From: an uncultured Bacilli bacterium
Lineage (GTDB): Bacteria > Bacillota_I > Bacilli_A > RF39 > UBA660
DNA length: 64,000 nt
Assembly (NCBI GenBank): GCA_947629255.1
Contig: CANRDF010000001.1
Location: forward strand, 758-64,757
Reading direction: 5' to 3'
Position 1 is the first letter of the stretch, and each line of letters starts with the position of its first letter. The notes under the pieces were generated by a model. The model did no database searches and was not told the origin of the DNA. It saw nothing but the letters and a program-made list of their open reading frames with translations. The position numbers and the translations under genes are program-made. Shown here piece by piece: positions 4,785 to 36,586 of this stretch.

Positions 4785-5999
4785 TTATTTACTTTCAATC
4801 ACATAAGGATTATCCATCGTTCCAAGTCCTGTAACCTTTACTTTCTTGGCTAATGTAATGACAGGTCTTACAAACAAACCACTTGATTCTGAAATGTCTC
4901 TTGTTAAAGATCCATCAGGTGAAACCGCAATATAAGAGATGTTATTGTTTTCTTTTTTATTTGGAGTCATGGTCCACCAAGATGCCTGAAGGGAATCTTT
5001 ATACAAATAGTAATCTTTGTTTTCTATTGTATCTCCTCCAGCAAACATCACTTCATCGGCAGTAAGTAAGGCCACTTTTTCGGATAACGTTGTTCCTCCA
5101 CAAGCATTTGTTGGCATTTTCTCATCAAAGATTCGGATATTTGATAAATATTCAATACGATTATTTTCATCTGTTAACATACTATCATCATAACAATACA
5201 AAGTACTTACAATTTGCGAGTCCACACTTCCTAAGTAATTTTCATACCAAGTATTTAAATACTCTTTCACAAGGGAGTCATTAAAAGCATAAGGAGTTTC
5301 ATTGTTTTCTTCTTTCATCTTCACTAATTCTTCCGAAGTATTATTTAACACTAATTTGACAGTTTTATCTTCATTAATTTTAACAATTCGCCATAGAAGC
5401 CCTGCGAATGATACATAGTTATTTTCTACATTTCCATGAAAGTAATACATCGTTCCATATTGTTCTAATTTTTCAATTAAACCTATGGCACTAGCATCTT
5501 CGGTCGTTTCTTGACTAGCCAAAATCGTACTTGCAAATGTCTCATCCATTTCATCAATATCTGTTTCAATCTCAAATTTTAAATCAGAATTAAGAGGATT
5601 ATTCACACTTAGATAATAACGATGTGTTTCCATTGGTTTTAACTCATAACGACTCACAATCACAGTTCGTGATAAATTACTTTCAATTGTTTCAAAATCT
5701 TCATTTGTTGAGGTTACTTTGTAAGTCACTCCATCGGTACTTCCAGAAATATTTGTTAAATGAACATAATAAAACATGGGATCACTAGACTGATTGGTAA
5801 TTGAAAACTCTAATATATTTTTACCTAACTGATAACTTTTCCCAGATAGATAATTCACTGATAAATCATCATTGACATAGGTATAGCCTAAAGAATCTTC
5901 TTGTCTTCCTAAATATGCTTGATATTGTAACAAGATAAAGACACATAAAACCATTCCACAAATAATAAACATTAATGATACTCGATATTTTTTACGCAT
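4785..5999 (-). CDS. secreted/membrane-anchored protein, paralog of the SipW-type signal peptide family (C-terminal NPY motif)
   Basis: N-terminal KK + TM. WRI(V/I) core motif and C-terminal MDNPYVIESK shared with the 860- and 461-aa paralogs. Own TTGACA-17-TATACT promoter at 6023-6051 (minus strand). Confidence 0.55.
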   Translation of the reverse strand: MRKKYRVSLMFIICGMVLCVFILLQYQAYLGRQEDSLGYTYVNDDLSVNYLSGKSYQLGKNILEFSITNQSSDPMFYYVHLTNISGSTDGVTYKVTSTNEDFETIESNLSRTVIVSRYELKPMETHRYYLSVNNPLNSDLKFEIETDIDEMDETFASTILASQETTEDASAIGLIEKLEQYGTMYYFHGNVENNYVSFAGLLWRIVKINEDKTVKLVLNNTSEELVKMKEENNETPYAFNDSLVKEYLNTWYENYLGSVDSQIVSTLYCYDDSMLTDENNRIEYLSNIRIFDEKMPTNACGGTTLSEKVALLTADEVMFAGGDTIENKDYYLYKDSLQASWWTMTPNKKENNNISYIAVSPDGSLTRDISESSGLFVRPVITLAKKVKVTGLGTMDNPYVIESK

Positions 6000-6098
6000 T
6001 TTATTCGTCGCCCCTATCCTAATTACAGTATACGAGCAAATTTTATGCTTGTCAATTTAAGAAATGCTTATTCTACAAAGATTTAACAAAAAAAAGCA

Positions 6099-7310
6099 TT
6101 ATTTTGTTTTGACAACTAAATAATACTTCTTTTTTCCACGGCGAATGATATTATATTTTTTGCTCTTTAAAACCATATTTTCATCTTGGACAATTTCTCC
6201 ATTCACACTGATGGCACGACCACCAAGGAACTCTCTTGCTTCTCGTTTGGAAGAGGCAATGTTATGATTGACTAAAAAATCAATTAACGGAGCACTTTCA
6301 TATTCTACCTGAGGAACTCCTTTAAAAACAGTCTCAATTTCTTCTTCGGTTAAATTTTTCACATTCCCTGTAAACAAACTATTTGATACTTCTTCAGCAT
6401 GAAGGTATTCTTGCTCTCCATGTAAATCGGTAATGATTTCTTTTGCAAGTGTTTTTTGAGCAAGTCTTTGTTCAGGTGATTCTTTTTGAATTTTTTCAAT
6501 ATCTTCGATTTCTTCTTTCGATAAGAAAGTTAATTTCTTTAAATAATCAATCACAAGTTCATCATCGGTATTAATTAAATATTGATATAATTCATAAGAA
6601 GATGTTTTATTTTTATCAAGCCATAAAGCATTTCCTTCGCTTTTCCCAAATTTATTTCCATCTTTATCTAAGACAAGAGGCATGACAAGTCCGTAGACTT
6701 CTTCCCCAGTTTTCTTTTTGACTAAGTCAACACCTGCTGTAATATTTCCCCATTGGTCACTTCCCGCAACTTGTAAAGTACAACCTTCCGTTTCATATAA
6801 ATGAAGAAAATCTAGGGCTTGCATAATCATATAAGAAAATTCGGTATAAGTAATTCCTGTTTCTAATCTTCTTCTTATAATATCTTTATCTAACATATAA
6901 TTCACATTAAAGTATTTTCCATAATCTCTTAAAAAATCAATAAAATTAATTTCTTTACTCCAATCCCAGTTATTCACAATTTCAAATCCAAAAATATCTT
7001 TTGCTTGACGAGATAATCCTTCCACATTTTTTTCAATTTCTTCAACAGATTTCATTTCTCTTTCGGCACTTGGTTTAGGATCCCCAATTCTTCCTGTCGC
7101 ACCACCAATCAAAAGTAATGGACGATGCCCAGCTTTGGCTAATCTCTTACAAATCAAAAATGAAGAATAATGCCCAATATGCATAGAATCTGCCGTGGGG
7201 TCTGTTCCAATATAAAAAGTAAGTCCTCCTTTATTTAACTTCTCAATAAGTTCTGGAGAAGTAATGTCTTTCACAAGTCCTCTCCACTGTAAATCTTCAT
7301 ATACTGTCAT
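6099..7310 (-). CDS. tyrS: tyrosine--tRNA ligase
   Basis: HIGH motif (MHIGHYSSF) and KMSKS-like KFGKS. C-terminal S4 domain. Start set at MTVYEDLQWRGL (ATG 7310). Confidence 0.92.
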   Translation of the reverse strand: MTVYEDLQWRGLVKDITSPELIEKLNKGGLTFYIGTDPTADSMHIGHYSSFLICKRLAKAGHRPLLLIGGATGRIGDPKPSAEREMKSVEEIEKNVEGLSRQAKDIFGFEIVNNWDWSKEINFIDFLRDYGKYFNVNYMLDKDIIRRRLETGITYTEFSYMIMQALDFLHLYETEGCTLQVAGSDQWGNITAGVDLVKKKTGEEVYGLVMPLVLDKDGNKFGKSEGNALWLDKNKTSSYELYQYLINTDDELVIDYLKKLTFLSKEEIEDIEKIQKESPEQRLAQKTLAKEIITDLHGEQEYLHAEEVSNSLFTGNVKNLTEEEIETVFKGVPQVEYESAPLIDFLVNHNIASSKREAREFLGGRAISVNGEIVQDENMVLKSKKYNIIRRGKKKYYLVVKTK

Positions 7311-7335
7311 ATGTAATTTTCCTCCCATAATAAAT

Positions 7336-7393
7336 AAAAAAATTCTATGTCTAGGGACGAATCAAATCCGTGGTACCACCCTAATTCATAGAA
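7336..7393 (-). terminator. T-box terminator/antiterminator helix of the tyrS leader
   Basis: Stem TTCTATG...CATAGAA flanks the T-box sequence and is followed by a U-run on the minus strand. Confidence 0.75.
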
Positions 7394-7470
7394 CGCATTC
7401 TATCTTTATTTTGCTTAACGCGCATAAACGATTTGATTTCCGTTGGTTGTAAGGCAACATCATCAATCAA
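7336..7470 (-). promoter_or_regulatory. T-box riboswitch leader for tyrS (Tyr specifier UAC)
   Basis: Conserved T-box AATTAGGGTGGTACCACGG lies on the minus strand at 7368-7386. Candidate specifier loop ccUUACAacc is at 7449-7452. Sits upstream of tyrS, the canonical arrangement in Firmicutes. Confidence 0.8.
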
Positions 7471-7477
7471 CAAATTC

Positions 7478-7506
7478 ATTTTAACAAAAGTTCTTACCCA
7501 TGTCAA
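7478..7506 (-). promoter_or_regulatory. sigmaA-type promoter of the tyrS leader
   Basis: Minus strand reads TTGACA (7501-7506), a 17-nt spacer, then TAAAAT (7478-7483). Confidence 0.5.
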
Positions 7507-7569
7507 ACTCTTTCTATTAAAACAGCAAAAAAGAGTAAATTTGAAAAAAATTTCTTCGCAAAGCAAATT

Positions 7570-9110
7570 TGATATAATACTACCATAAGAAGGTAGGTTT
7601 TCTAAGAGTATGTGTGAAGAGTTAAAAAAAGAAATAGAAGAAAGTCAAAATTTAGGAAGAAGAGAAAGAAAAATAAAAGAAAGACAATTGCAAAAGAAAT
7701 ATAAGGATAAAACAATAAGAATCAAGTTTGGAAAAAAATTTACTAAATCTCCTGGCTTAAGTAGAGAACAACAAAGAGAATTATTAAAAGATAAAAACTT
7801 ATTAAATGAATTAAGAAAAATTATCAAAAAATATTTTCCTGATTTAATGTCTTTATTTTCTAAACTTACGGATAAAAGACACAAAAGTTATGTTACTTAT
7901 AAAATGAGAACAATTATTATGACTAAATTGTTTGCTTTACTATGTGGTATTACAACTATGACAGGCATTAATGATGAATTTCATACAGAAGAAGCAATTG
8001 AAAATTTATCTAAAATTTGTAATCAAGAATTAAAAGAAATACCTGATTGGCAAACAATACAGGATGTGATAGAACAATTAGATTATAATGAGATTGATGA
8101 TATTAGAAAATATATGTTTAAAGCTTTACTTAGAAGTAAAATGTTTGATCGATTTCGTTATAATGGTTGTATTCAATTAATTGTAGATGCTACAGGTCTT
8201 ACTGCTTTAGACTATAACTTAAATGGCAATTGTTTAACGAGAACAAGAGATGGGAAAACAAAATATTATAAATATGTTTTAGAAGCCAAAGTAGTATTCG
8301 GCAACATGCTTATTAGTATTGATTCGGAATGGATTGAAAATAACAATTTCAATAATGAAAAAGATAAACAAGATTGTGAAACAAAGGCTTTTAAAAGAAT
8401 GGCACCTAGAATCAAAAAGAATTATCCTAAATTAAAGTTTATTATTACAGGAGATGCCTTATATGCAACTACTCCTATGATTAATCTTTGCCAAGATAAT
8501 AACTGGCATTATATTTTTAATCTTAAGAAAGATCGATTAAAAAATATTTATGAAGAATTTGAAGATAACATCAATTATGAAAATGAAGTTTCTAAAGAAA
8601 ATTATTTTTTATCTTCTAATATTTTATTTAAAGATAATAAGATTAATGCTCTTCGATACATAGAAGTAAAAGAAGATAAAACAACCGTTTTCAATTATAT
8701 TACTGATTTATCCGTAGATACTTATAACATTGAAGAGATTGTTAAGATGGGTAGACGTCGTTGGAAAATTGAAAACGAAGGTTTTAATGAGCAAAAGAAT
8801 GGAACTTATAAAATAAGTCATTTATGTAGCAGATTTGAAAATGCATTAAAGATTCATTATCTATTTATACAAATTGCTCATACCATTAGACAATTACTAG
8901 AATTGGGTTCTTTGGTTGTTAAATCCATAAAAAGATATGTGAAGAAAAAAGAAATAAGCAAAGATATCACCCACACGCTTATTTCTTCCAAAATCACAAA
9001 TCTAGAAAGTTTAGATTTAAACTTTCAATTAAGATTTGATGATTAGATTATACTACTAAATTTGACCTTTGAAAACTAGTGTGGGTGATATTTTTATAAT
9101 TTTGATTTTT
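7570..9110 (+). mobile_element. IS element carrying an IS4-superfamily DDE transposase (boundaries approximate)
   Basis: Single transposase ORF with an extended -10 (TGaTATAAT, 7570-7578). Terminal repeats not confidently identified. atactac occurs at 7577 and 9055. Confidence 0.45.
7610..9046 (+). CDS. DDE transposase (IS4/IS1634-like)
   Basis: 478 aa. C-terminal RRRWKIENEGFNEQK resembles the IS4-family R-x3-E-x6-K signature. Lys/Glu-rich N-terminus. Confidence 0.7.
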   Translation: MCEELKKEIEESQNLGRRERKIKERQLQKKYKDKTIRIKFGKKFTKSPGLSREQQRELLKDKNLLNELRKIIKKYFPDLMSLFSKLTDKRHKSYVTYKMRTIIMTKLFALLCGITTMTGINDEFHTEEAIENLSKICNQELKEIPDWQTIQDVIEQLDYNEIDDIRKYMFKALLRSKMFDRFRYNGCIQLIVDATGLTALDYNLNGNCLTRTRDGKTKYYKYVLEAKVVFGNMLISIDSEWIENNNFNNEKDKQDCETKAFKRMAPRIKKNYPKLKFIITGDALYATTPMINLCQDNNWHYIFNLKKDRLKNIYEEFEDNINYENEVSKENYFLSSNILFKDNKINALRYIEVKEDKTTVFNYITDLSVDTYNIEEIVKMGRRRWKIENEGFNEQKNGTYKISHLCSRFENALKIHYLFIQIAHTIRQLLELGSLVVKSIKRYVKKKEISKDITHTLISSKITNLESLDLNFQLRFDD

Positions 9111-9118
9111 TGCATGCC

Positions 9119-9208
9119 TTAATTTATGCGAAAAAAAACTTTATGATCTTTTTTATCTTTAATTTTCATAAAGTTTTCTTTTTTAAACTAATTTACTCTT
9201 TTTTTCTG
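9119..9208. repeat. ~90-bp direct repeat copy 1 (contains a bidirectional terminator hairpin)
   Basis: About 95% identical to 14756-14843. Contains the inverted repeat AAAACTTTATGA-N18-TCATAAAGTTTT flanked by A8/T-runs. Confidence 0.8.
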
Positions 9209-9221
9209 TATTAAAAAATGA

Positions 9222-9822: not shown

Positions 9823-10758
9823 TTATGATCTATTATTGTTTTTTTGCTCCACTTTCTGAATTACTGTTAGTATAATTAAAAAGATTGTCGCGAGAATAAG
9901 TAAAAACCATATATTTTTGCTTAACGCATTCATGAAATAATTAATAAATGTATTAGCGCTCTCCCATTGATTCATTAAAAAGTCTTTTCCAATAGTTCCA
10001 ATCATAATTTCAACAAAAACAAAAAGGAAAATATAAACTAAAATAGTATTTTTTAAATAAAGAATATATTTTTTAGAATGAAAATGAAGACATACCAAAC
10101 AAAACGCACTTATAAGGAGAACGCTTAAAGCAACACAAATATAAGTTGTACTCATAAACATTTTTAACAAACCTGTCACATCTTTTAAAGTAATATTTTG
10201 ATATACAATAATATTTCCTTCTTCCATCTTTTTTAAGAATACATTCGCAGTCGGGAAAAAATTCATGACTTCTCCTGCATACTCATGAATAAAATTCACA
10301 ATCTTTTGTTTATCTTTCTCTGAAAAAGATTTATGATTCTCTTGTAATTTGGCATCAATCACATAAAAATTATCAGTGGCCAATTGAATCAAATCATCTT
10401 TTGTAATACTTGCTTTATCTTCTTGATAAATGATATAGTTTAAAACATCATAAGTATATTTACCAATAAAGTTCTTGGTCGCTTTACTGTTTAACACAGA
10501 ATCAATTGTATCAGAAGGAATAGATAAAAATTCTAAGAATTCTCGCATTTCCTCAATAAAAACAGGTTCTTTCCCGTAACGATCCTGTAGCAAAAAAGAT
10601 AAATCATTATTTTCAATATTAGATACAATTTCGCTTTCTCGTAAATTCCACTTTAAAAGAAAAGAAATAGTTAAAAAAATACTAGCACTTAATATGATAA
10701 TAGATAAAAAAACAGATACGATTTTCTTTCCCATTTCCATCACCTTCTTGTTCTTCAT
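9823..10758 (-). CDS. polytopic membrane protein (candidate immunity/accessory protein)
   Basis: 311 aa with an N-terminal TM and a C-terminal TM cluster. Sits in the bacteriocin cassette. Confidence 0.45.
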   Translation of the reverse strand: MKNKKVMEMGKKIVSVFLSIIILSASIFLTISFLLKWNLRESEIVSNIENNDLSFLLQDRYGKEPVFIEEMREFLEFLSIPSDTIDSVLNSKATKNFIGKYTYDVLNYIIYQEDKASITKDDLIQLATDNFYVIDAKLQENHKSFSEKDKQKIVNFIHEYAGEVMNFFPTANVFLKKMEEGNIIVYQNITLKDVTGLLKMFMSTTYICVALSVLLISAFCLVCLHFHSKKYILYLKNTILVYIFLFVFVEIMIGTIGKDFLMNQWESANTFINYFMNALSKNIWFLLILATIFLIILTVIQKVEQKNNNRS

Positions 10759-10861
10759 TCATTTTATCACAAGTTTTTTTGTTTGTCATTCTATATCGTA
10801 TTTATGGGACGAAAGCCGAATAAAATACATCAAAATGAGAAAATTACTACTAGGTGATAGT

Positions 10862-11299
10862 ATGAATTTTGAAAGGATTCGTTTTGTAAGAGAAATGCTA
10901 GATCTTTCTGGGAGACAACTTGCTAAAAAGCTAAACTTAACAAAATCAACTGTCTCAAGATGGGAAACTGGAGAAAAAGTAATTCCTTTAAAACATCTCA
11001 TTACTTTATGTAATGAAACGATGATCAGCCTCGATTTTGCTTTAGGATTATCTAATGATCGATCCAAAATCACAGAAAAAAGAGAATTAGATCCAATATG
11101 GATTGGGAAACATTTAAAAATTCTAAGAGAACAGAAGAAAATTACTCAATCAGAATTAGCCAAACTTTTAAACACATCTCAATCAACAATATCATCTTAT
11201 GAAAGTGGGAAAACGACAATACTGACTGCATTTCTTTATTCCATTTGCAAGCGTTATAAAGTATCTGCAGATTGGATTTGTGATAATAATGAATCTTGA
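10862..11299 (+). CDS. tandem-HTH XRE-family transcriptional regulator
   Basis: Two Cro/C1-type HTH units (LAKKLNLTKSTVSRWE and LAKLLNTSQSTISSYE). Start at MNFERIRF with RBS AGGTGA. Paralog of 46515-46952. Confidence 0.75.
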   Translation: MNFERIRFVREMLDLSGRQLAKKLNLTKSTVSRWETGEKVIPLKHLITLCNETMISLDFALGLSNDRSKITEKRELDPIWIGKHLKILREQKKITQSELAKLLNTSQSTISSYESGKTTILTAFLYSICKRYKVSADWICDNNES

Positions 11300-11550: not shown

Positions 11551-11691
11551 CTATTTGTTGCATTTGAGTGGTCTTGTGATTCCATCTAAGAAACCACCAA
11601 GAAATGAAATGACGCCTGCGATCACTCCACCAATTACGAGCCAGCTTACTCCACCACCATAAGTGGCTAAGAGTTCCTCTTTTTCCATCAT
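11551..11691 (-). CDS. double-glycine-leader bacteriocin precursor peptide 1 (GxxxG-rich)
   Basis: Manual translation gives MMEKEELLATYGG|GVSWLVIGGVIAGVISFLGGFLDGITRPLKCNK. Strong RBS AAAGGAGGTGA. ATGA overlap with the upstream ORF. Confidence 0.75.
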   Translation of the reverse strand: MMEKEELLATYGGGVSWLVIGGVIAGVISFLGGFLDGITRPLKCNK

Positions 11692-12158
11692 GGGTCTTCA
11701 CCTCCTTTCAAGGTTTTGATAAGAATTTCCATAAGGCTTTTCTTATCTTCAATTAAAGTAACATCAATCGTTTCTTTATCGTAAAACTCAAGTTTAGGAA
11801 TTTCTAAAGAAACGGTTTCATAAGCGACATTTTGGATCACTTCTATACTTCCAAATTCTTTGACTTTCAAAGAATATTTTTTTGATTTGATCCATAATTC
11901 ATTACTTTCTTTTAAATTTTTTGCATGAGAATATGGCATCAAAACTTTTAAAGTACAATCATTCTTCTTACATTCATATAAACCTTGCAAAGGAATTGTT
12001 TCTTCAATTTTGTAGAAGAACAAAAGACTAATACAAAAAAGAAATAAAAGTAAGAAAAAAATTAAAAATTTTAACTTTGTTTTTTGATGTAACAAGGCAT
12101 ATATGTTATACTGTGGATTTTTTGTTTGCAAATGTAATCTTCCTTTCAAATAAATCAC
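11688..12158 (-). CDS. membrane-anchored small protein of the bacteriocin operon (possible accessory/immunity)
   Basis: 156 aa with one N-terminal TM. Overlaps the transporter 3-prime end and peptide 1 start (translational coupling). Confidence 0.45.
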   Translation of the reverse strand: MIYLKGRLHLQTKNPQYNIYALLHQKTKLKFLIFFLLLFLFCISLLFFYKIEETIPLQGLYECKKNDCTLKVLMPYSHAKNLKESNELWIKSKKYSLKVKEFGSIEVIQNVAYETVSLEIPKLEFYDKETIDVTLIEDKKSLMEILIKTLKGGEDP

Positions 12159-14145
12159 TATGATCTTTATGACTAATATAAATAACGGTTTTCCCCTTTA
12201 ACAATTTTCGAATTCCCCCAATAATCTTCACTTCCATCGAATCTTCCACTTCACTTAAAACTTCATCGAGTAAATAAACACTTCCCTCTTTCATTAGAGC
12301 CCGAGCAAGTAATATTCTTTGTCTTTCTCCACCAGACAAGGAAGAATCATTAATGAATGATGCATAACGAAGAGGCTTTTTACTTACAATCGATTCAATC
12401 TCACAAGCCCGACAAACCTCATCAAAATGTTTACCTTTTTCACTACCCATTAAAATATTATCTTCAATAGTTCCCGCGACAAAAGACTCGTTTTGACTTA
12501 AGTAAATGACGGAAGAACGAATCTCAGACAAAGTATAATCTTCTAAATCTTTTTCTAAAAAAGTAATTTTTCCCATATAATCCGTAAGTTCTCGATGCAA
12601 AATTTTACACAAAGTACTTTTTCCACATCCACTCGGTCCATCTAAGAAGACATGTTCTTTCGCTTTCACTTTAAAACTAAAATCAACAATACTTTCTTTG
12701 ACATCATTATAAGAATAACTAATATGTTTTCCTTCAATACTTGGAACAGGAATCACTGATGTAGTCTTCACTTCTTCTTCCTTAAGTTCCATCGTTTCAC
12801 TTAATTTTGAAAGAATCCCTTTCATATAGTAAAATCTTGGCAATAAATCTGTAAGTTCTTTTAAAGGATTTATAAAATACAAATATAAACTTTGAAATAA
12901 AAGAAAATCATAAATAGTTAAAATGTTATCTTTCACTAAAATCATTCCATATGTCATTAAAAGAAAGAACAAGATTTCTAAAAAGTTTTCCCTGATAAAA
13001 TCAATCACAAAAGCATGACTTTTTTCTTTCGTATTTAAAATCACGGTTTCACAAAGACGTTCTTCCATGGTTTGAATCGAGTATTCTGTTAAATTTAAGT
13101 TTTTCATACTCGGATAAAGTTTGATTTTTTCCATAATAAATTCATTCCATTTAGTATTATTTTCCATTAAATGTTTTATAATTTTATAGTAATACCTTGA
13201 AGTAAGAGAACTAATGACACAGTAAAGAAACATACCAAGAACGACAACCAGAGTGAGATGATAATCTAAGAAAAACAAAAGAACTAACGAAGAAATACCA
13301 AGAATTCCTTCAAGAAAAAATGTTATACAAATCTGAATAAATAAGTCTTTTACATTTTTTGCTTCTTCAATTCTTGTAATGATATCTCCTTCATGAAAGC
13401 TTTGAAATTTTGGCATGGGAAGTTTTAATAAATGAGAAACAAATGAATAAAGATAAGTTACTTCTACATTTCGATTTAGTTTCAATTCCATTTTTCCTTT
13501 TCCATAAGTAAAAATACATTTGAGAATTGTAAATCCTAAAAAGATTCCAACAAAAAGCCAAAACTGTTGATTCGAAAACAAAGGAGTATATTCCATTCCA
13601 ATTTTTAAATAAAAACTCGAAAGAATCGAAAGAACAGAAATCATAAGACTTAAGAAAACAATGACAAAAATATTTTTCTTTTCTCTTTTAACAATCTCCA
13701 TCACATGTTTTAAAACACTTTTCTCTTTTGGAATTCTAGGAATATAAGTTCTTGGAATGGCCACTAAAACTATGCCATCCCATATGGTTTGTAATTCTTT
13801 CTTTAAAACTTCTCTTTTTCCAGAAGACGGATCCATAATCGTTACACTTTTTTCACTAATTTTAGTTAAAACAACAAAGTGCTGCATTCCATTTGGTAAT
13901 ACAAAATGAAGAATGGCTGGAAGCGGAATTTCTTTTAAATGATTCATATCACTTTTTTCGCCAAAAGAATCAAATTGATATTTCTTTAACGTTTCCACTA
14001 AATGATAAGCAGTCGTTCCATTCTGATCAGTATAAGTATCTTCTTTTAATTTTTCAATAGGCACATATCCATGATAAAACTCTATAATATAGAGAAGACA
14101 TGTTACTCCACAATCTCTAAAATCTCGTTGTACAATCGACTTCAT
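12106..14145 (-). CDS. bacteriocin ABC exporter with N-terminal C39 peptidase domain
   Basis: C39 catalytic Cys (RDCGVTC) and His (HFVVL). Six-TM region, Walker A GPSGCGKST, LSGGERQR signature, LLDE Walker B. Confidence 0.88.
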   Translation of the reverse strand: MKSIVQRDFRDCGVTCLLYIIEFYHGYVPIEKLKEDTYTDQNGTTAYHLVETLKKYQFDSFGEKSDMNHLKEIPLPAILHFVLPNGMQHFVVLTKISEKSVTIMDPSSGKREVLKKELQTIWDGIVLVAIPRTYIPRIPKEKSVLKHVMEIVKREKKNIFVIVFLSLMISVLSILSSFYLKIGMEYTPLFSNQQFWLFVGIFLGFTILKCIFTYGKGKMELKLNRNVEVTYLYSFVSHLLKLPMPKFQSFHEGDIITRIEEAKNVKDLFIQICITFFLEGILGISSLVLLFFLDYHLTLVVVLGMFLYCVISSLTSRYYYKIIKHLMENNTKWNEFIMEKIKLYPSMKNLNLTEYSIQTMEERLCETVILNTKEKSHAFVIDFIRENFLEILFFLLMTYGMILVKDNILTIYDFLLFQSLYLYFINPLKELTDLLPRFYYMKGILSKLSETMELKEEEVKTTSVIPVPSIEGKHISYSYNDVKESIVDFSFKVKAKEHVFLDGPSGCGKSTLCKILHRELTDYMGKITFLEKDLEDYTLSEIRSSVIYLSQNESFVAGTIEDNILMGSEKGKHFDEVCRACEIESIVSKKPLRYASFINDSSLSGGERQRILLARALMKEGSVYLLDEVLSEVEDSMEVKIIGGIRKLLKGKTVIYISHKDHSDLFERKITFANKKSTV

Positions 14146-14348: not shown

Positions 14349-14657
14349 CTATTTTTCTTTTAACTCTTCAATTGTCTCTACGGATAAACCTGTAATTCTA
14401 GAAATTTTTTCTATTCCTAGCTCATGAATTTCTTCTAACATATTCTTAGCTATCTCCCTACGTCCAGCGTCAAGTCCTTCTCCATAAAAAACATTTTTAA
14501 GATTCTCTTCCCAATTGTAGATTTTACGTAACTCTTTGTCTTGTCTTAAATCAATTGGACTTGTTGCTATCGTCATTAAGTCATCATCTCCTCTTGCAAT
14601 TTGCTTTCTTTTCTTCTCTGATGTTTCTTGCATTAACCATAAGTGTCTTAGTAGCAA
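14349..14657 (-). pseudogene. remnant of an Rpn-family (PD-(D/E)XK) putative transposase, C-terminal fragment only
   Basis: C-terminus EGLDAGRREIAKNMLEE..ISRITGLSVETIEELK matches the conserved Rpn/YhgA tail. The ~220-aa N-terminal nuclease domain is absent. Confidence 0.45.
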
Positions 14658-14890: not shown

Positions 14891-17473
14891 TCATTCCACT
14901 AATTCTAACTCATATGGGTTTTCATAACTTCCATCTTTACCATTATCTTTTATTTGAACATTTTGTTTCAAATATAAGGTAGGTCGAATCGCATTGGAAT
15001 GATTTGGGCCATATCCTTTATAACTGGGGTAGGAACAATGAACAAATCCAGTATTGGTCATTTGAAAAACATATGCATTCCCCGAGAAGAAATATGAAAC
15101 CGACAACATCCACACATTATCAGAGATATCAGTCGAATATAGCCAATCATGTTCCTCACAACTCGTATTATAATCACTTAAATCAGTTTCTAAGCAAGAA
15201 TCTCTAACTGCTCCCCCTGCCGCATAACCATAGTCACTTGGATACATGACGGCAATGCTATGGAATAAATTTTGGTCTAATTCACCATTCGCATCCTTGG
15301 TATTTTCTCTAGTCCAATAAGAAGTCGAAGCTTTGTTGGGTATAATGTTGCTTCTCTCCCATTTATAAAAGGTAGGAGTATTATCATATCCATAACCCAT
15401 GATAGCACCTGTGTCCCAAATAATTTCTTCGTCTATCATGTTTGTATCACTTAAAGTTGAATAATACGTTTCATTTAAATACCGCATCAAATCTGAATCA
15501 GTCCAGTCAGTGTGAGAGGAATCAGAATCCCATTGCCGATTTCCTATACTATCATTGCTAATTATTTTGAACCTTTTTTCAGTGGTTCCAGTTGATGTTT
15601 GGACATTCACAAGTCCTATAATTCTCCATAATTCATTGTTAAATGTTAAATAATTATGAACATAATCTGTACTACTGTCTGTGTAGTTATCTCCTGCATA
15701 ACGGCATTCATTCTTTTTCCAAAATTCTATGCTAATATCTGAATGTTCTACCATATATAAGCCATTTCCTTCTGTTACAATAGGAACATTTTTAATTGGA
15801 GATACCAAGATTGTTTTGGATGTTTCATTTGCATTTCCAGATTCATCTGTTACTTTTACAGTGATGGTGTAATTCTCACATGGTATAACTGAAAATTTAT
15901 GACTATTTTCTCCATTTTCCCAGTTTCCTTCATCTATTTTATATTCATATGATTGAATTCTTGTCTCTTGATCTGCACTTTTACTTGCATCTGCTAGGAT
16001 TGTGTTTCCATTGGAACTTAATTGTAAATCGACTGTTGGTGGAGTTACATCTATATAAGATATTTGAATAGAACTGTGAGTTACATTGTTATATGCATCT
16101 TTGGCATAAACATAATAAGTTCCATTTTCTGTTACTGGGTAATCTGCATTATAACTTTTTGGATTGCCGTCTATTGTTATCCATGTTTCTGGGTCTTTTG
16201 CTTCTGTCATCACTTGATATCCAAATAATCCTGCTTTTTCATCACTTAAATTGATATGGATTTTATCACTTTCTCCCCAAGCAGTTAAATCATTTGTAAG
16301 AGTAATTGTTGGTGGTTTTTTATCAATAATATCTGTACTATATTTCATTGAACTTGTGTGTCCCAAAGCATCTTGAGCAAATATATAATATATTCCATTA
16401 TCTTCTATTGTTTGATTTACTATATAATCATTTTGAGTTTTCTCTACACTTTCCCATTCACTTGGTGGAGCTGGGGTACTTTCTGATAACAACATAATTG
16501 GTGTTAAATCTTCTTTGGTGATTTGATATTTTACTAAGCCACTTTGAGAATCTTTTAGGGTTATTGTTAATTCTACTGATGTATGATTGTCTTTTTGTTC
16601 ATATTTAATATCTGGTCCTACTGTATCAATCTTTGTCACTTCAAATTCTTTTTCTTTTATATTTCCCATTTCATCTTTTACCGAAAAATAATATTTTCCT
16701 AATTTTGTAAAATCTTCTGTAATTTCAAATGTTGTATTTTTATCACTAATTGGTTTCCAATTTTGAGTTTCTTGCATTTGACTTATTTTATATTCTATTA
16801 ATTTATACTTTTCACTAACTGCTTTTAAAGTGATACTCTCACTTTTTTCATTATATTCTGCTGTATTTGAGTTAGCACTTAATATAATATTATTTTCTAA
16901 TTGCTCTGTTGTTTTATATGTTGCTACGACTGTAATCTTACTTTTAAAGTAAGCATTCATAACTTCTTCGATGGGTGGTGTTTCCTCATCTAACCATAAT
17001 CTTAAATGGTAAGTTACACTTTGATTTTGCCCATCTAATATTCCTGTTGTTAATCTATGAGACTTAGTTGCATTTTCTAATGTTTCTTTGACGCTTTCAT
17101 AATCACTTAACACTAATGGCGTTCTATCGTCAAGTTGAACTTTTAGATATTTTTCTGGTAAAAGTTTTTGTTCTTCTTCTAATTGTAATGTTTCCAGATT
17201 TACTTGATAGGTTAAAGAAGTAGGACATATATTGGTAATGGTAAATTCGTATGGAGTTAATTCTTCTCCTTCTTCATCTGAAATCGGAAATGCTTTTTGT
17301 AATGAAATAGGATTTTTCTCATCTGTTAAAGTGACTTTAAAACAACTAGATGCAAGCGTATCATTATCCATTTGAGAAAGTCTAAGTTCCCAGAACGCAT
17401 AAGTCACTCCTACTACACTTAATAATAATATACTTAATCCTAAAATAAATAAACTTGTTTTCTTTCTTTCCAT
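14891..17473 (-). CDS. large secreted surface protein with SipW-cognate-type signal peptide and Ig-like repeats
   Basis: N-terminus KKTSLFILGLSILLLSVVGVTYAFWE resembles the TasA/camelysin signal. Repeated TVGPD/PPTITL/TPPTVDL modules. C-terminal WRIIGLVNV...NPYELELVE homology with the 461-aa paralog. Confidence 0.6.
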   Translation of the reverse strand: MERKKTSLFILGLSILLLSVVGVTYAFWELRLSQMDNDTLASSCFKVTLTDEKNPISLQKAFPISDEEGEELTPYEFTITNICPTSLTYQVNLETLQLEEEQKLLPEKYLKVQLDDRTPLVLSDYESVKETLENATKSHRLTTGILDGQNQSVTYHLRLWLDEETPPIEEVMNAYFKSKITVVATYKTTEQLENNIILSANSNTAEYNEKSESITLKAVSEKYKLIEYKISQMQETQNWKPISDKNTTFEITEDFTKLGKYYFSVKDEMGNIKEKEFEVTKIDTVGPDIKYEQKDNHTSVELTITLKDSQSGLVKYQITKEDLTPIMLLSESTPAPPSEWESVEKTQNDYIVNQTIEDNGIYYIFAQDALGHTSSMKYSTDIIDKKPPTITLTNDLTAWGESDKIHINLSDEKAGLFGYQVMTEAKDPETWITIDGNPKSYNADYPVTENGTYYVYAKDAYNNVTHSSIQISYIDVTPPTVDLQLSSNGNTILADASKSADQETRIQSYEYKIDEGNWENGENSHKFSVIPCENYTITVKVTDESGNANETSKTILVSPIKNVPIVTEGNGLYMVEHSDISIEFWKKNECRYAGDNYTDSSTDYVHNYLTFNNELWRIIGLVNVQTSTGTTEKRFKIISNDSIGNRQWDSDSSHTDWTDSDLMRYLNETYYSTLSDTNMIDEEIIWDTGAIMGYGYDNTPTFYKWERSNIIPNKASTSYWTRENTKDANGELDQNLFHSIAVMYPSDYGYAAGGAVRDSCLETDLSDYNTSCEEHDWLYSTDISDNVWMLSVSYFFSGNAYVFQMTNTGFVHCSYPSYKGYGPNHSNAIRPTLYLKQNVQIKDNGKDGSYENPYELELVE

Positions 17474-17520: not shown

Positions 17521-17531
17521 CCCCCCCCCCC
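17521..17531. repeat. C11 (G11 on coding strand) homopolymer in the promoter of the 860-aa surface-protein gene
   Basis: Eleven consecutive C, 48-58 nt upstream of the ATG. On the minus strand it sits between TTGACT and a TATAT-like -10. Confidence 0.85.
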
Positions 17532-17574
17532 ACAAGTCAATACTTTTTTATATTTTTTTGCGTTTTGTGGTGTA

Positions 17575-29851: not shown

Positions 29852-31174
29852 TTACAAAGATAATGTATATGGTTTTTCTTGACTACCATCCTGTCCATTA
29901 TCTACAATTTTAATACTTTGTTTTAAATACAAAGAAGGATATGTTTGTAAAGCATGATATGTACCATTACTTGTATAAATAGATAAATTAGGATCTATTC
30001 CATAAGCGTATATATTCCCATCATTTCTAGATGTAATCGTCCATATGTATTTAGAATTTGGCTTTATCCAACTGCTATTATAGCATTCTAAACTATACGT
30101 ATCATTCGATTGTATATTAAACAATATTTTGGATAAGCATGCATCTCGTCCTTCCTCTCCTCCATCTGTTGTATATCCATAATCACTAGGGTAAATAAGC
30201 CCTACCCCATGAAAAATTGCAAAATTACTATTTTCTTTATTCCAAACAATTGCTTGACCATTATAACTATTACTGCCACGTTCTTTTTCATATAAATCAT
30301 TTACATAACTATTTACTCGCATTCCATATCCTGTATTCCAAGAAATATCTTCATCAATCATATCATGTGATAAAGAATTTAACCCTTTTATTTTTTCACT
30401 ACCATCAAAATTACATACACTTTCAGTCTTATCACTAGTATTCCAACATTCTCCACTTTCACTATTATAATAAATTCCATTTAACATTTCCATAAGACTC
30501 GATTTTGTCCAATCATTATTGTCATCTTTATCCCAAGCAAAAGATCCAATACTTTCATTTCTAACAATTTTTACTCTTTGTTCTATTGTATTATCTTCAT
30601 CTATCATGACATTCACAAGTCCTATGATGCGCCAATCTTCATCATTAAATTTAATATAATTATTTGGATTTGTCCCCGCATAACGCCATTCGGTTTGCTT
30701 AAATCCCTCATCTAATGAACTATCTTCATGTTTGACTTCATAAAGTCCATCTCCACTGGTCACGGCTTTCACTGGTTTTCCTAAAATAAAAGCACCTTTC
30801 ACAAAATATAAATTACATTTCGTTCTTGACGTAGTCATTCCACTTACATGTACTGTATAATCTTCGGTTAAAGATACATGAATCTTTTCATCATCCTGTC
30901 CATTTATTCCACAGTAACTTGCATCTTCATCTAATATATATCCGCTATGAATTTGAGGCATTTCTTTTTGAATATTGTTATCCACATAAAAAGCAAAGTA
31001 AATGTTTCCTGGATCTTCCAATGTTCCATTAATCACATTTTGATTTGTTTTCACTTCAAAAATAGCAAATGTTCGATATAAAACAACTCCACTTACTAGC
31101 AAAATACAGATAATCGTAAATACTATAATTCCAAATTGTTTATGATTTCTTTCTTTAAATTTTTCTAGCCTCAT
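29852..31174 (-). CDS. secreted protein with SipW/TasA-like signal peptide (paralog family; C-terminal EKPYTLSL)
   Basis: Start at MRLEKFKERNHKQFGIIVFTI...LYRTFAIFEV...NGTLED. WRIIGLVNV block shared with the 860-aa protein. Own promoter TTGACA-17-TATACT. Confidence 0.6.
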   Translation of the reverse strand: MRLEKFKERNHKQFGIIVFTIICILLVSGVVLYRTFAIFEVKTNQNVINGTLEDPGNIYFAFYVDNNIQKEMPQIHSGYILDEDASYCGINGQDDEKIHVSLTEDYTVHVSGMTTSRTKCNLYFVKGAFILGKPVKAVTSGDGLYEVKHEDSSLDEGFKQTEWRYAGTNPNNYIKFNDEDWRIIGLVNVMIDEDNTIEQRVKIVRNESIGSFAWDKDDNNDWTKSSLMEMLNGIYYNSESGECWNTSDKTESVCNFDGSEKIKGLNSLSHDMIDEDISWNTGYGMRVNSYVNDLYEKERGSNSYNGQAIVWNKENSNFAIFHGVGLIYPSDYGYTTDGGEEGRDACLSKILFNIQSNDTYSLECYNSSWIKPNSKYIWTITSRNDGNIYAYGIDPNLSIYTSNGTYHALQTYPSLYLKQSIKIVDNGQDGSQEKPYTLSL

Positions 31175-31280
31175 ATCCTCACCTACTATTTCAAGTATAT
31201 TATTTTTAAAGGTATCTGTCAAGTACCATATTATCATTTTAAAGGTATTTTCGTAGTACCCTTATGTTAGGTGAAAGAAA

Positions 31281-31496
31281 ATGAAAGTGACATCAGAACA
31301 TTATAAACCAGAAGAAATGTTTAAAATTTTACGAGAATGGTCAGGACTTACTCAAGAAGAGTTTGGAAATTTAATTGGGAAAAATGGTCGTTCTTGGGCA
31401 AAAGGAATTGAAAGAGGCATCAATCGTTTCTATTTTTCTGATATCTATGACATTGCCAAAAAGTTAAATATTACTATTACATTCGAAAAGAAATGA
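31281..31496 (+). CDS. small XRE-type HTH protein divergent from the SipW-signal paralog
   Basis: 71 aa with LTQEEFGNLIGKNGRSWAKGIERG. RBS AGGTGA. Paralog of 36368-36586. Confidence 0.6.
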   Translation: MKVTSEHYKPEEMFKILREWSGLTQEEFGNLIGKNGRSWAKGIERGINRFYFSDIYDIAKKLNITITFEKK

Positions 31497-31862
31497 TTCT
31501 ATACTATTATTTCGAAACAAGCAAAAATATTACATATTGACACACGTCTAATGTTTCGTTATAATAAATTTGTTACAAGTAGTAATTGACTGCATTGTGA
31601 AGAGATACTCGAGGAACATATGAGTCAGTCTAAATTATATGTCATGAATAGCATTGTGAAGAACTTTGTTTTGAGGAACATATAAGTCTATTCGTTAATT
31701 TTTAAAGATGGCATTCCGCTTAGATAACTTTTACAAGAGTAGAAATACTTTTTACGGTATTGTTTCAATACAATATTATGACAAGTGCTGTTAGGCATTC
31801 TACTAAGGTTAGTCATTGACTATCCTTTTTGTTTATAAAAATTCCTTTTTTTGCATTTTAAA

Positions 31863-31885: not shown

Positions 31886-31892
31886 TTCAATC

Positions 31893-33591: not shown

Positions 33592-33600
33592 TTTTATCGC

Positions 33601-34395
33601 CTAAAACCCTTTCCATATCATAAATGCGAGAATTACAAATAAGAAACTATCAAACCGATCTAATATTCCACCATGTCCTGATATTAAATTAGAAAAATCT
33701 TTAATGTCATTTTCTCTTTTAATTTTACTGAATAACAAATCTCCAAATTGACTTATGACAGATAATACGAAACTCTGTAAAAGTATTCCTACTATATTTT
33801 GGTTACTAATGAGAAAATAATACAAAACAGTTGGTCCGATTGTTCCAAATATTGCTCCCCAGATACAACCCGCATAAGTTTTGTTTGGACTAATCACTGG
33901 TGTAATTTTTTTATGGCCAAACCATTTTCCCATCAGCATAGCAAAGATATCCGTAAATATTGGTATTGATAAAATATAACAAAGTAAATATAAATTTTCA
34001 TTTCTAAGAACGAGAACCGAGTGAAATGAGATTCCCAAAAAGACCAATACACCCATTAAATAAAAAGCATCTTTCGTTTCATAATCTCCCTTTTTATATG
34101 GAAACAATGTTGGAAGTAAAAAGACAAAACTGAGTATAGCAAGAACCACCCCTGGAATTCCATTAATCGTATCAAAATTATAAATGACTAAAAAGAATAA
34201 AGCACACATAGCAACTAAAACAATACCATTAGGAATCTTAGAATGACTTTGTTTTAAATCAATGATTTCTTTCAGTGCAAGCAAAGATAGAATACCGATA
34301 GCTATTGTAAATGCTCTTCCACCAGCAATAAATAATGGGATCAAAATAAGAGCTAGAACAATTGCACTAATGACTCTTTTTAACATAAGCACCAC
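33601..34395 (-). CDS. cdsA: phosphatidate cytidylyltransferase
   Basis: 264-aa polytopic protein. C-terminal signature SxxKRxxxxKDxxxxxPGHGGxxDRxD-like (KIKRENDIKDFSNLISGHGGILDRFDS). Confidence 0.85.
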   Translation of the reverse strand: MVLMLKRVISAIVLALILIPLFIAGGRAFTIAIGILSLLALKEIIDLKQSHSKIPNGIVLVAMCALFFLVIYNFDTINGIPGVVLAILSFVFLLPTLFPYKKGDYETKDAFYLMGVLVFLGISFHSVLVLRNENLYLLCYILSIPIFTDIFAMLMGKWFGHKKITPVISPNKTYAGCIWGAIFGTIGPTVLYYFLISNQNIVGILLQSFVLSVISQFGDLLFSKIKRENDIKDFSNLISGHGGILDRFDSFLFVILAFMIWKGF

Positions 34396-34471
34396 CTATT
34401 AAAAGTATACTATGATTCCCCAGTTTATTCAACTATTGACATAAAAACTTTACAAAATTTACTTTTTGCAA

Positions 34472-36271
34472 TTATGGAGTAAGGATAAGTCGAAAAGTAT
34501 TTCCTATACCTGCTATACCACGAGCACCCATAAATGTGCTAATTCCCGATTCACTTCCATGACTCATACTTCCATTTCGAAGAAACCACGGAAAATCTGA
34601 ATAAATAAAGTATGCCATATCAGCAAAATAACTACTTATGGATTGTGTAAGATTTTGACCATAACTATACTGAATGGTATAAAAAGGACCAGTCTCTTTT
34701 GTAGCATCCCCTAAATGTCCTAAGAAATAATTTTTCTCAGTGGTACCAAATTCGTATAAATCATAATATTTACTTTGAGGCATAAGTAATCCATCTTCTT
34801 TTTCTCCATCCATTTTAGAATAGGGACCATTAAATCCAGAATTTGTAGTAGAATTAATTCCCGTAGTAGGTGTTCTATTAGTAAGAGAAGATTGCATAAC
34901 CCCCATAACAAATTCTCCTGCTCCTCCAGACATATCATAAATTCCTGAATAATTTCCTGTTGTGCTTGATTCCATGCTTAACGGATTATAATAATTATAA
35001 CTATAGTTCCCATCCTGATTGATTTTCACATTTTCGTATTTATTACATTCTTCATTTGATGCTGTATATCCACAAGTTGCATCTTTACTTGCAGAATATC
35101 CTGTTATATAATTACCATTATTATTTAATCTTACTTCTTTACATTCTGTTTCACTGCATCTACCATATTTGGAATAAGTCAAATAGAAAACTGCACCCCA
35201 TTCTGTGTTTTTCATCATATGACTATCTAAATCCCGTAAATAATTATAAGAATTATAAAATGCATGAGAAATATCGATAGATCTCCAACTATAAGTATTA
35301 GGTTTTATTTGAATAGCGGAACTATTTAACACATTATAATTTTCAATGAGTGTTGTTCCAGTTTCAAATTTGCCGACCCACATTCCATTTGCATGAAAAG
35401 AGACAAAAGCAGGATGAGTCAGCCAATCATTTTGTTGAGTACCAGTCGATAAACCAGAATCTACAGTTTCATAGACTATTTTATATGGATTTTTTAAGCC
35501 TAAATTTGGAACACTATCGTTGTTTGAATGTACGCCTAAAGAAGTTCTGTCAGAATAATTATTATATGTACTTTCACTTTCTTTTAATTGATATCTATAC
35601 CTTGGAATCCACACAAAATAACTTTCAATATCACTTTCGGGTATTTCTTGTCCAGATGCATAATTATCTGACACACCATCTTTAAGTATCACGGCATTTG
35701 CCCATTGTTTATTGGCATAATTATACCATTCATCCGTAATATCTGCTTTTATGACTTTTCCACCATAATTTTGCAAAGCATTTATGTATTCTACATCACT
35801 TGGCTTAGCATTATTCATAATTTGAACTGGGACAAGTCGTCCATTTCCAAGATCTGGTATAGCACCGTTTAATTCTGAATCCTTATAAATTTGTTTGAAA
35901 TAAAGATAGCATTTTGTTTTCGTAGTAGAAACATTTTTAATTTCTATACTCCAATTTTCATAATCCCAATTAACATTACTTACCTGTTTGTCATTTAATA
36001 AATCTACACAATAACTAGAACTTGTATCTAATGAATAACCTTCTCCTTTTTTAGGAGCTTCTTTTACTATGCCATCATCTTTATAAAAAACAAACTCTAA
36101 ATCTCCCATGTCCCCTACTTTTCCTTTAATCACATTTTGATTTGTTCTTACTTCAAATATCGCAAATGTTCTATAAAGTATTACTCCACTAACTAGTAAA
36201 ATACATGTTATTGTAAACACTATGATCCCTATTCTTTTGTTATCTCTTTCTTTAAATTTTTTTAATTTCAT
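34472..36271 (-). CDS. secreted protein with SipW/TasA-like signal peptide (paralog family, divergent C-terminus)
   Basis: N-terminal 100 aa nearly identical to the 461-aa paralog (MKLKKFKERDNKRIGIIVFTI...LYRTFAIFEV). Promoter TTGACA-17-TATAAT. Confidence 0.6.
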   Translation of the reverse strand: MKLKKFKERDNKRIGIIVFTITCILLVSGVILYRTFAIFEVRTNQNVIKGKVGDMGDLEFVFYKDDGIVKEAPKKGEGYSLDTSSSYCVDLLNDKQVSNVNWDYENWSIEIKNVSTTKTKCYLYFKQIYKDSELNGAIPDLGNGRLVPVQIMNNAKPSDVEYINALQNYGGKVIKADITDEWYNYANKQWANAVILKDGVSDNYASGQEIPESDIESYFVWIPRYRYQLKESESTYNNYSDRTSLGVHSNNDSVPNLGLKNPYKIVYETVDSGLSTGTQQNDWLTHPAFVSFHANGMWVGKFETGTTLIENYNVLNSSAIQIKPNTYSWRSIDISHAFYNSYNYLRDLDSHMMKNTEWGAVFYLTYSKYGRCSETECKEVRLNNNGNYITGYSASKDATCGYTASNEECNKYENVKINQDGNYSYNYYNPLSMESSTTGNYSGIYDMSGGAGEFVMGVMQSSLTNRTPTTGINSTTNSGFNGPYSKMDGEKEDGLLMPQSKYYDLYEFGTTEKNYFLGHLGDATKETGPFYTIQYSYGQNLTQSISSYFADMAYFIYSDFPWFLRNGSMSHGSESGISTFMGARGIAGIGNTFRLILTP

Positions 36272-36367
36272 GTGAATCACCTATATATTCCCATTCGTTC
36301 TGTATGGATTATAATCAAATTATACATTCATATTGTATGCTTGTCAAGAAAGGATGAAAGTATAAAT

Positions 36368-36586
36368 ATGAAATTTATTGCAAATGATTACTCAGAAAAA
36401 GATGTCATGAAATTTTTAAGGGAAGGAACCGGACTCATTCAAGAAGAGTTTGGAAAAAGTATTGGTCTTAGTGGGATGACCATTCAAGGATATGAAAGAG
36501 GAATTAGAAATTATACCTTTAAAACATTTATGAAAATCATAAAAAAACATGGTTATACAGTAACCATTGAAAAAAAGAAGAATTAA
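36368..36586 (+). CDS. small XRE-type HTH protein divergent from the SipW-signal paralog
   Basis: 72 aa from MKFIANDY, with LIQEEFGKSIGLSGMTIQGYERG. Aligns with 31281-31496. Confidence 0.55.
   Translation: MKFIANDYSEKDVMKFLREGTGLIQEEFGKSIGLSGMTIQGYERGIRNYTFKTFMKIIKKHGYTVTIEKKKN

Follow-up and report, generated by a model that had tools for sequence, protein, structure and literature searches.

A modular family of exported-type proteins with lectin-like heads in uncultured gut Bacilli carries, at many of its copies, either a poly-G tract or a divergent XRE-type gene

Phase variation by a homopolymer in the promoter spacer is known from the vlp genes of Mycoplasma hyorhinis (poly-A) and from opc and porA of Neisseria meningitidis (poly-C/poly-G). 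Our knowledge of the reduced-genome Bacilli that commonly inhabit animal guts comes almost solely from metagenome-assembled genomes (MAGs). The domain DUF6273 also serves as the variable receptor-binding domain of phage proteins targeted by diversity-generating retroelements (DGRs; PMC10743442). Here we analysed a 64,000-nucleotide stretch from an uncultured Bacilli bacterium (contig CANRDF010000001.1; hereinafter the window), which contains four surface-protein genes, designated A404, B860, C461 and D602 after their open reading frames (ORFs) of 404, 860, 461 and 602 amino acids. Related loci, designated by L-numbers (L003, L011, etc.), were fetched for comparison, which brought the DNA fetched in all to 795 kb. 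We favour, with moderate confidence, the view that the four genes belong to a very large modular family of exported surface proteins, the copies of which are switched individually, by a poly-G tract or by an XRE-type helix-turn-helix (HTH) regulator, giving surface variation. The class of mechanism, namely simple-sequence phase variation and local repressor control, is known; in the literature that could be searched, no description appears to exist of the protein family, of its lineage or of control designs that alternate exclusively.

Two control designs are found in the family. Among 94 assessable family genes, 41 have a poly-G tract and 17 have a divergent XRE gene, and no gene has both (hypergeometric P = 1.5e-5). 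Both designs are present in the window: B860 has the poly-G tract, C461 and D602 have the XRE gene, and A404 has a consensus promoter only. The initial annotation proposed a duplicated regulator-plus-secreted-protein cassette as a self-contained novel system. That proposal does not hold, as the cassette is one of two control designs in a huge family; the commoner design, the poly-G promoter tract at B860, was not reported there.

The G11 tract upstream of B860 is the sole G/C run of at least 8 nt in the window, where 0.11 is expected. Of the 795 kb fetched in all, the non-duplicate loci and the window contain 51 non-redundant runs of this kind. Each of the 51 is at the 5' end of a family-type gene, on its coding strand, and there are none elsewhere. 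Specifically, 39 of the 51 tracts begin 0–4 nt after a TTGAC-type −35 element and are followed by an extended −10 element (TGnTAnAAT), a ribosome-binding site (typically GGTGA) and an ATG, about nine lie within leader- or N-domain-coding sequence and often encode 'GGG' ahead of the leader motif, and the remaining tracts are of the promoter type and are cut by contig ends. The B860 tract, the 39 promoter tracts and the roughly nine intragenic tracts thus occupy the positions that characterize contingency loci, namely the promoter spacer or the 5' coding region. Tract lengths are G8 (one), G9 (four), G10 (39), G11 (six) and G12 (one). The modal spacer between the −35 and −10 elements is 20 bp, 3 bp above the σA optimum, so the commonest assembled state may be weak or off. 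We propose that the B860 G11 tract is a slipped-strand phase-variation switch, judging from its sequence and position.

A change in the length of an intragenic tract must shift the reading frame. Such tracts are found in L045 (11889–11898), L050 (4610–4619), L060 (7393–7400), L064 (113–121), L076 (5993–6002) and L058 (30–40 and 2390–2400), and several of the genes that carry them are split into two ORFs in the assemblies, matching the frame-shifted 'off' states that would be expected. Length differences are also observed among promoter tracts. Paralogous promoters of one genome that have identical flanks carry G9, G10 or G11, and the gene downstream of P0023 has G11 in one sample and G10 in another, with sequences otherwise identical over 171 nt. 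The B860 locus is present in three other assemblies, two of which end inside the tract, while the third agrees with the window in having G11. Breaks inside tracts are seen in several contigs; tracts fragment assemblies, and the family is therefore probably under-counted in MAGs. Metagenomes were scanned twice for variants in tract length, first with the B860 promoter and then with a promoter pattern of the family, and gave nothing or chance matches; further contig look-ups across samples yielded nothing, single contigs or loci of the XRE type. Upstream of P0048, the family gene is called at 459 aa in L096 and at 428 aa in L097 with identical DNA over the part shown (1–291), and this discrepancy may reflect a difference in frame or start further upstream.

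The tracts might not be switches at all. They could be artefacts of assembly or sequencing, or they could be a fixed part of the promoter, for instance a rigid spacer or a site where a protein binds; on either view, the family would consist of conventionally regulated surface lectins. Poly-G is a weak spot of Illumina two-colour chemistry, and errors of this kind could account for the contig breaks as well. Exactly G10 is found in 39 of the 51 tracts and two of the three loci compared across samples show no length difference, as this alternative would predict, while the same-genome promoters with G9, G10 and G11, and the locus that differs across samples by a single G only, speak against it, as do the intragenic tracts with their obligatory frame shifts. 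The tracts also keep a constant position in the promoter or leader of one gene family and occur nowhere else in the 795 kb. An assembly-artefact origin is rejected, since the tracts are internal to contigs, have flanks conserved on both sides and are specific to the family in independent assemblies (rabbit, chicken, mouse and other). Overall, we consider this alternative unlikely.

The second design is represented by C461 and D602, each of which is divergently paired with an XRE-HTH gene, as first reported, with 106 and 96 bp, respectively, between start codons. The two HTH genes are indeed paralogous (44% identical, E 2e-16, BLASTP). The model HTH_3 (PF01381, cut-off 23) matches the gene at 36368 with 28.7 bits (E 1.4e-6) and the gene at 31281 with 21.8 bits, just under the cut-off. 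The C461 and D602 cassettes are old duplicates: their leader-coding DNA is ~80% identical over 144 nt, their HTH genes share a 64-nt stretch of 78% identity, and their intergenic regions do not align. Divergent pairing recurs in other genomes, namely at the 17 of 94 family genes and at further loci. Homologues of the HTH protein encoded at 31281 occupy the equivalent divergent position in L003 and L011, and the partners as a whole belong to several unrelated subtypes: the 71-aa type (L003, L011), a 67–80-aa single-HTH type, a 145–160-aa double-HTH type and another type.

The association between XRE genes and the family is enriched, not exclusive, because two double-HTH genes of the window adjoin unrelated genes. 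One of them (within 10694–11299, +) is divergent from the gene for a multi-pass membrane protein (9823–10758, −), and its subtype sits upstream of family genes in L015, L017, L039, L057 and L074. The 311-aa ORF beside it was considered as a fifth member and rejected as an unrelated membrane protein. The other encodes a 148-aa double-HTH protein (46506–46952) and is flanked by SpoIVA (44848–46326) and SpoVIF (46980–47330); the neighbouring 492-aa gene was likewise rejected as a family member, being SpoIVA.

A strong TTGACA-17-TATA(A/C)T promoter had been assigned to each of the four genes. It is present at A404, C461 and D602, but not at B860, which has the TTGACT-tgt-G11 layout. Exact TTGACW-N16-18-TATAMT sites number four in the whole window, where 0.49 are expected. 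The fourth of them (31537–31565, +; TTGACA-17-TATAAT) lies just downstream of the 71-aa HTH gene and points towards the tRNA-Arg/HAD region. Repeated sequences are found at the promoters of both cassettes, and at C461 the repeat is a 12-mer that occurs three times in the window, where 0.05 copies are expected. The third exact copy (36513–36524, +) is inside the coding sequence of the HTH gene of the D602 cassette. From their sequence and placement, it is plausible that the 12–15-nt repeats are operators for the adjacent HTH proteins. All features are listed in Table 1.

Table 1. Surface-protein genes of the window, their modules, and the associated promoters, tract, regulator genes and candidate operators
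Feature	Position	Strand	Description
A404	4785–5999	−	Signal-anchor N-terminus without [ST][YF]A.[FW]; small β-sandwich region; DUF6273 head, residues ~231–383 (nt ~4851–5309)
A404 promoter	6027–6055	−	TTGACA-17-TATACT
B860	14891–17473	−	Type-2 leader and TasA/AbpA-like β-sandwich, residues 1–198 (nt 16880–17473)
B860 remainder		−	PKD/Ig-like repeats in mid-protein; DUF6273-type lectin-like head, residues 561–858 (nt 14900–15793)
Poly-G tract	17521–17531	−	G11 on coding strand (C11 on + strand); 48 bp upstream of B860 start, 3 nt downstream of −35
B860 −35 hexamer	17535–17540	−	TTGACT; TTGACT-tgt-G11 layout
C461	29852–31174	−	440 aa from ATG 31174; type-1 leader, residues 1–130 (nt 30785–31174)
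C461 head		−	DUF6273-type expanded C-type-lectin-like, residues ~133–440
C461 promoter	31194–31222	−	TTGACA-17-TATACT
Candidate operator, C461	31204–31248	−	ATACCTTTAAAA, two exact copies 33 bp apart; 31204–31215 in C461 promoter spacer, 31237–31248 upstream
71-aa XRE-type HTH gene	31281–31496	+	Divergent from C461; HTH_3/HTH_31 matches; putative local repressor
D602	34472–36271	−	599 aa from ATG 36271; type-1 leader, residues 1–127 (nt 35891–36271)
D602 head	34475–35890	−	No significant Pfam match; weakly FGE-sulfatase/C-type-lectin-fold-like
D602 promoter	36319–36347	−	TTGACA-17-TATAAT
Candidate operator, D602	36292–36339		Two 15-nt imperfect dyads (CATnCAnnnnTGnATG type), 33 bp apart; 36325–36339 in D602 promoter spacer, 36292–36306 just past −10
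72-aa XRE-type HTH gene	36368–36586	+	ATG 36368, mechanical ORF from 36272; divergent from D602; putative local repressor

The four surface-protein ORFs and the two small HTH ORFs lie where the initial annotation placed them, and the starts at 31174 and 36271 are backed by homologue alignment, ribosome-binding sites and promoter position. The proteins appear from their sequences to be exported-type paralogues, as proposed. The four-member paralogy is real but mosaic, not uniform, in all-against-all BLASTP. B860 and C461 match in their C-termini (34% identity over 381 aa, E 9e-50), C461 and D602 match in their N-termini (54% over 125 aa, E 2e-37), A404 matches C461 (33% over 81 aa, E 3e-5) and B860 (E 3e-4), and no match is found between A404 and D602 or between B860 and D602. 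The 'near-identical first ~100 aa' of C461 and D602 was overstated: identity is 80% over residues 1–50 but 38% over the next 50. GVTYAFWE, initially given as part of a shared N-terminus, is present in B860 alone, and the 'GVTY' of A404 is at residue ~90, outside any leader. The WRIxxLxNV block and the C-terminal NPY/KPY motif are present in A404, B860 and C461 as described, and both are signatures of the DUF6273-type head. A404 has full-length orthologues in L038 (E 5e-91) and L052 (E 2e-81) and is a distant, conserved superfamily member. Taken together, the initial observation is confirmed in part, and its interpretation is supported in part.

The leaders contain a basic N-region, a hydrophobic helix that ends in [ST]-[YF]-A, and a small β-sandwich. 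At least three leader types exist, and A404 lacks the motif, so there is no single camelysin/TasA-like N-terminus common to all four proteins. The first ~60 residues of the type-1 leader are extremely conserved (MKLxKFKEKxxKxxGIIxFTIxCILLxSGVxLY[RK]TFA[IS]FEVxxxxNVINGxVxDPGDIYFAFY), and the leader is invariably at residues 1–130, the extreme N-terminus (223 clusters at 50% identity). The type-2 leader, found in B860, has the pattern G[VI][ST]YA.W...Q...N.....C with two conserved cysteines, and the type-3 leader has the motif GISYALFFEVKGN..N..V.AGTLEF. Types 2 and 3 are homologous (E 1e-13 to 5e-9). The hhalign match between types 1 and 2 is in register but weak (P 0.005), which makes homology between these two at most possible.

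These leaders raise the question whether the proteins are SipW-processed matrix or fibre proteins of the TasA/camelysin type, with the paired XRE proteins acting as SinR-like regulators and sipW located elsewhere in the genome. By eye, the leaders do resemble TasA/camelysin: three of the four end in [ST]-[YF]-A-x-[FW], and in type 3 this is followed by '...N..V.AGTLEF'. SinR, the repressor of tapA-sipW-tasA, is itself an XRE-type HTH protein. The SipW-type signal itself is not recovered. The signal model TIGR04088 (cut-off 19 bits) scores the positive control TasA at 38.0 bits at full length and at 41.6 bits for the N-terminal 60 aa, but at E ≤ 10 it matches neither the leaders of A404, B860, C461 and D602 nor the type-3 and poly-G-encoded leaders of relatives. 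TasA/Peptidase_M73 models give no match in Pfam or NCBIfam, and when the families of C461, of the B860 leader and of D602 are searched as sequence profiles against the PDB, nothing significant is obtained, with TasA absent from the results for the first two. No sipW is present in the window, in agreement with the initial annotation: essentially all window ORFs of at least 100 aa are without a Peptidase_S26 match, the motif S[GSN]SM.P is in no window ORF, and a regular-expression search finds SGSM.P in no ORF of the related loci (~730 kb). The [ST]-[YF]-A sequence conserved in the leaders would fit an ordinary −3/−1 site of signal peptidase I equally well.

At the level of structure, the top matches of the B860 N-domain are TasA and AbpA, with modest similarity, but sequence models give no match; the type-1 β-sandwich of C461 and D602 is just ~75 residues, and the proteins consist mostly of the lectin-like head. 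The segment after the hydrophobic helix is of low confidence in both AlphaFold2 models, as would suit a donor strand (PMC9674648; PMC9245690). On balance, TasA-type matrix or fibre proteins are an improbable description of the family. It is less probable still, though conceivable, that the leaders are TasA/AbpA-like donor-strand-exchange units and that the products co-polymerise into combinatorially variable, independently switched adhesive fibres with interchangeable heads.

Most of each protein is a lectin-like head and not a domain of the TasA/camelysin kind. A404 matches Pfam DUF6273 (PF19789) at E 1e-6 and 29.2 bits, above the cut-off of 23.5. B860 scores 20.3 bits, below that cut-off, and C461 and D602 have no Pfam match, so by sequence the PF19789 assignment applies to A404 only. 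Some C461 homologues bear a precomputed PF19789 annotation, and the hidden Markov model (HMM) of the C461-family head matches A404 at E 1e-8. Fold equivalence to the solved DUF6273 domain, the N-terminal domain of an IgA protease, is found. D602 matches the leader HMM at E 7e-50 and does not match the HMM of the DUF6273-type head, and hhalign finds no relationship between the two kinds of head. FGE-sulfatase matches, all sub-threshold, are obtained for the D602 head in 9 of 35 members (best E 7.5e-4), together with sub-threshold local motif matches to PvdO and to the DGR variable protein TaqVP.

The family is very large and restricted to its lineage. C461 has 1702 database homologues, none of them named, most of which align over the full length at 36–58% identity, and the D602 head has at least 5479. 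Genome representatives contain 564 loci, all in MAGs of gut Bacilli or 'Tenericutes', with 7–8 loci per MAG already among the best 80. The family is also modular. In the window and the loci fetched, 65 ORFs match both the leader HMM and the head HMM built from the C461 family, nine match the leader only and 40 match the head only. Leader-only ORFs have C-termini of the D602 type or of a LamG-like or β-helix-like type, head-only ORFs have a type-2 or type-3 leader instead, and the D602-type head is found behind leaders of types 1, 2 and 3. Family copies are scattered among housekeeping genes. In L055 (586–8564), four nearly identical genes with a type-3 leader and a DUF6273 head stand in tandem, and the gene after them has a poly-G promoter and a head of the D602 type; this array suggests local amplification of family members.

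What is observed directly, namely the homologies and folds of the modules, their copy number, the positions of the tracts, a single G10/G11 polymorphism and the mutual exclusivity of the designs, leads us to propose the following mechanism. A conserved N-terminal leader or stalk would carry an interchangeable C-terminal ligand-binding head, of the DUF6273 C-type-lectin-like kind in A404, B860 and C461 and of the FGE-sulfatase-like kind in D602. In the first design, a presumably hypermutable poly-G tract lies between the TTGAC −35 and the extended −10 element, or in the leader-coding region of some relatives, and slipped-strand gain or loss of one G would alter promoter spacing or reading frame and so turn the copy on or off. 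In the second design, the product of the divergent small XRE-HTH gene presumably binds the repeated 12–15-nt sites that overlap the strong consensus promoter. The likely outcome would be that the cell varies its set of adhesin- or lectin-like surface proteins, which would help it to attach and to evade host or phage; the function is most likely variable adhesion or ligand binding at the cell surface. Within this scheme, we infer export, cleavage, ligand binding and repression by the HTH proteins.

Several points weigh against individually switched surface proteins. On/off switching itself is a step that we infer, and tract length varies at one of three comparable loci, B860 having G11 in both spanning assemblies and P0048 having G10 in both. 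The prevalence of exactly G10, with its 20-bp spacer, could mean a fixed structural promoter element, and the −10 element of the B860 promoter is ambiguous. Neither a poly-G tract nor a divergent XRE gene is found at 36 of the 94 family genes. The window has two further XRE genes away from family genes, and XRE genes are common in these genomes. As for the proteins, the leader could be an uncleaved membrane anchor, and the D602 head is read as a divergent FGE/C-lectin-fold domain from sub-threshold matches only.

The window has a GC content of 30% and is chromosomal, not a mobile element. It encodes RecD2, a MiaB-like radical-SAM enzyme, TyrRS, cysteine desulfurase, EzrA, an MMPL transporter and VanY, together with RseP, CdsA, the Der GTPase, a Mur ligase (MurE-like), a penicillin-binding protein, SpoIVA and SpoVIF. 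These housekeeping and sporulation genes indicate that the host is a walled, spore-forming, low-GC Firmicute, and it is probably a spore-former even though relatives are labelled 'Tenericutes' or 'Mycoplasma sp.'. Other labels among the MAGs of relatives are uncultured Bacilli and Candidatus Ventrenecus, and the sources are rabbit, chicken, mouse and other guts. Proteins identical to C461 and B860 are found in gut-metagenome assemblies of the ENA only. An Rfam scan of the window finds tRNAs only (n = 2), and a megablast comparison of 23 kb of the region with plasmid and phage collections gives no relevant match, the single match being a tRNA.

That the pairs of XRE and surface-protein genes are remnants of mobile elements, prophages or toxin-antitoxin-like modules is very unlikely: the HTH proteins weakly match antitoxin and phage-repressor models (HipB, MqsA, RstR), L003 pairs the same HTH type with a family gene in another chromosomal context, and DUF6273 occurs in phage receptor-binding proteins (PMC10743442), but there is no near match in the phage or plasmid collections, integrase, phage structural genes and direct-repeat boundaries are absent and the flanks are housekeeping genes, the partner has a leader peptide and a lectin-like head and not a toxin fold, and the divergent position next to family genes is taken by XRE genes of no fewer than four unrelated subtypes, which fits recurrent recruitment of regulators.

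Other genes of the window are described here for orientation. An IS4-like DDE transposase gene (7610–9046, +) lies between TyrRS and the pair formed by the membrane-protein and XRE genes. Directly downstream of B860 is a C39-peptidase/ABC exporter gene (12106–14145, −), which is accompanied by small ORFs (14349–14657 and 11688–12158); the segment 11688–14657 (−) looks like an export locus for double-glycine-leader (bacteriocin-type) peptides, and this neighbourhood is also present in L083 and L084. The D602 cassette is followed directly by another paralogous cluster, a run of four genes for pentapeptide-repeat proteins of 883, 643, 343 and 324 aa (36615–44418, −), interrupted by a PHP-domain gene (39349–40236). 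A 161-aa protein with a prepilin-type N-terminal methylation motif of the pilin/pseudopilin kind (48820–49305, −) stands alone among housekeeping genes. A further group on the minus strand (58018–60922) consists of genes for a protein with a HipA_C-like kinase domain (58018–58920), a Peptidase_C39_2-like protein (59952–60683) and an NlpC/P60 fragment (60611–60922), and adjoins a gene for a 623-aa protein without a Pfam match (61476–63347).

The family bears on how these gut Bacilli meet host, mucus, phage and other microbes. Dozens of copies per genome, with poly-G at a stereotyped promoter position and mix-and-match lectin-headed proteins, would, if the proposal is true, constitute a 'phasome' comparable to those of Mycoplasma, Campylobacter and Neisseria in a lineage with none described. 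It would also set DUF6273, as found in gut IgA proteases of clinical interest, in a wider biological context. That one family should alternate exclusively between poly-G as a stochastic switch and XRE as a repressor is a design principle open to testing.

Several described systems can be compared with the family. As in the biofilm fibre proteins TasA, CalY and BsaA and the archaeal bundling pilin AbpA, which have SipW-type signals, the leaders end in a small-aromatic-Ala sequence with an aromatic residue after it; TasA and AbpA are also the top structural matches of the B860 N-domain, and control by an XRE-type repressor, as for TasA (SinR-controlled), is possible. Unlike these proteins, the leaders are not matched by TIGR04088, sipW is not nearby, structural similarity is modest, and the leader domains, which are smaller, continue into large lectin-like heads. 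The N-terminal domain of the IgA protease of Thomasclavelia ramosa (IgAse/ThomasA; PDB 9qa6) is annotated as Pfam DUF6273, whereas in the present family DUF6273 is C-terminal and forms the main body, and neither an M64 catalytic domain nor a sortase motif is present.

As in vlp, opc and porA, a mononucleotide tract lies between the −35 and −10 elements of genes for exported surface proteins, the family is multi-copy, and tract length varies among paralogues and, at one locus, between samples. The present family differs from these genes in that the proteins belong to another, uncharacterised family, the hosts are uncultured spore-forming gut Bacilli, poly-G is found in a genome of 30% GC, a second, mutually exclusive XRE design exists, and switching is here proposed from the tracts. 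A CLec/FGE-type fold likewise serves as a variable ligand-binding surface in the DGR-diversified phage 'tentaclins' (DUF6273), Treponema TvpA and Thermus TaqVP (PMC10743442). Unlike the loci of DGR systems, the window has no reverse transcriptase or template repeat, and in place of mutagenic retrohoming the diversity of the present family comes from many paralogues, module shuffling and, as proposed here, expression switching.

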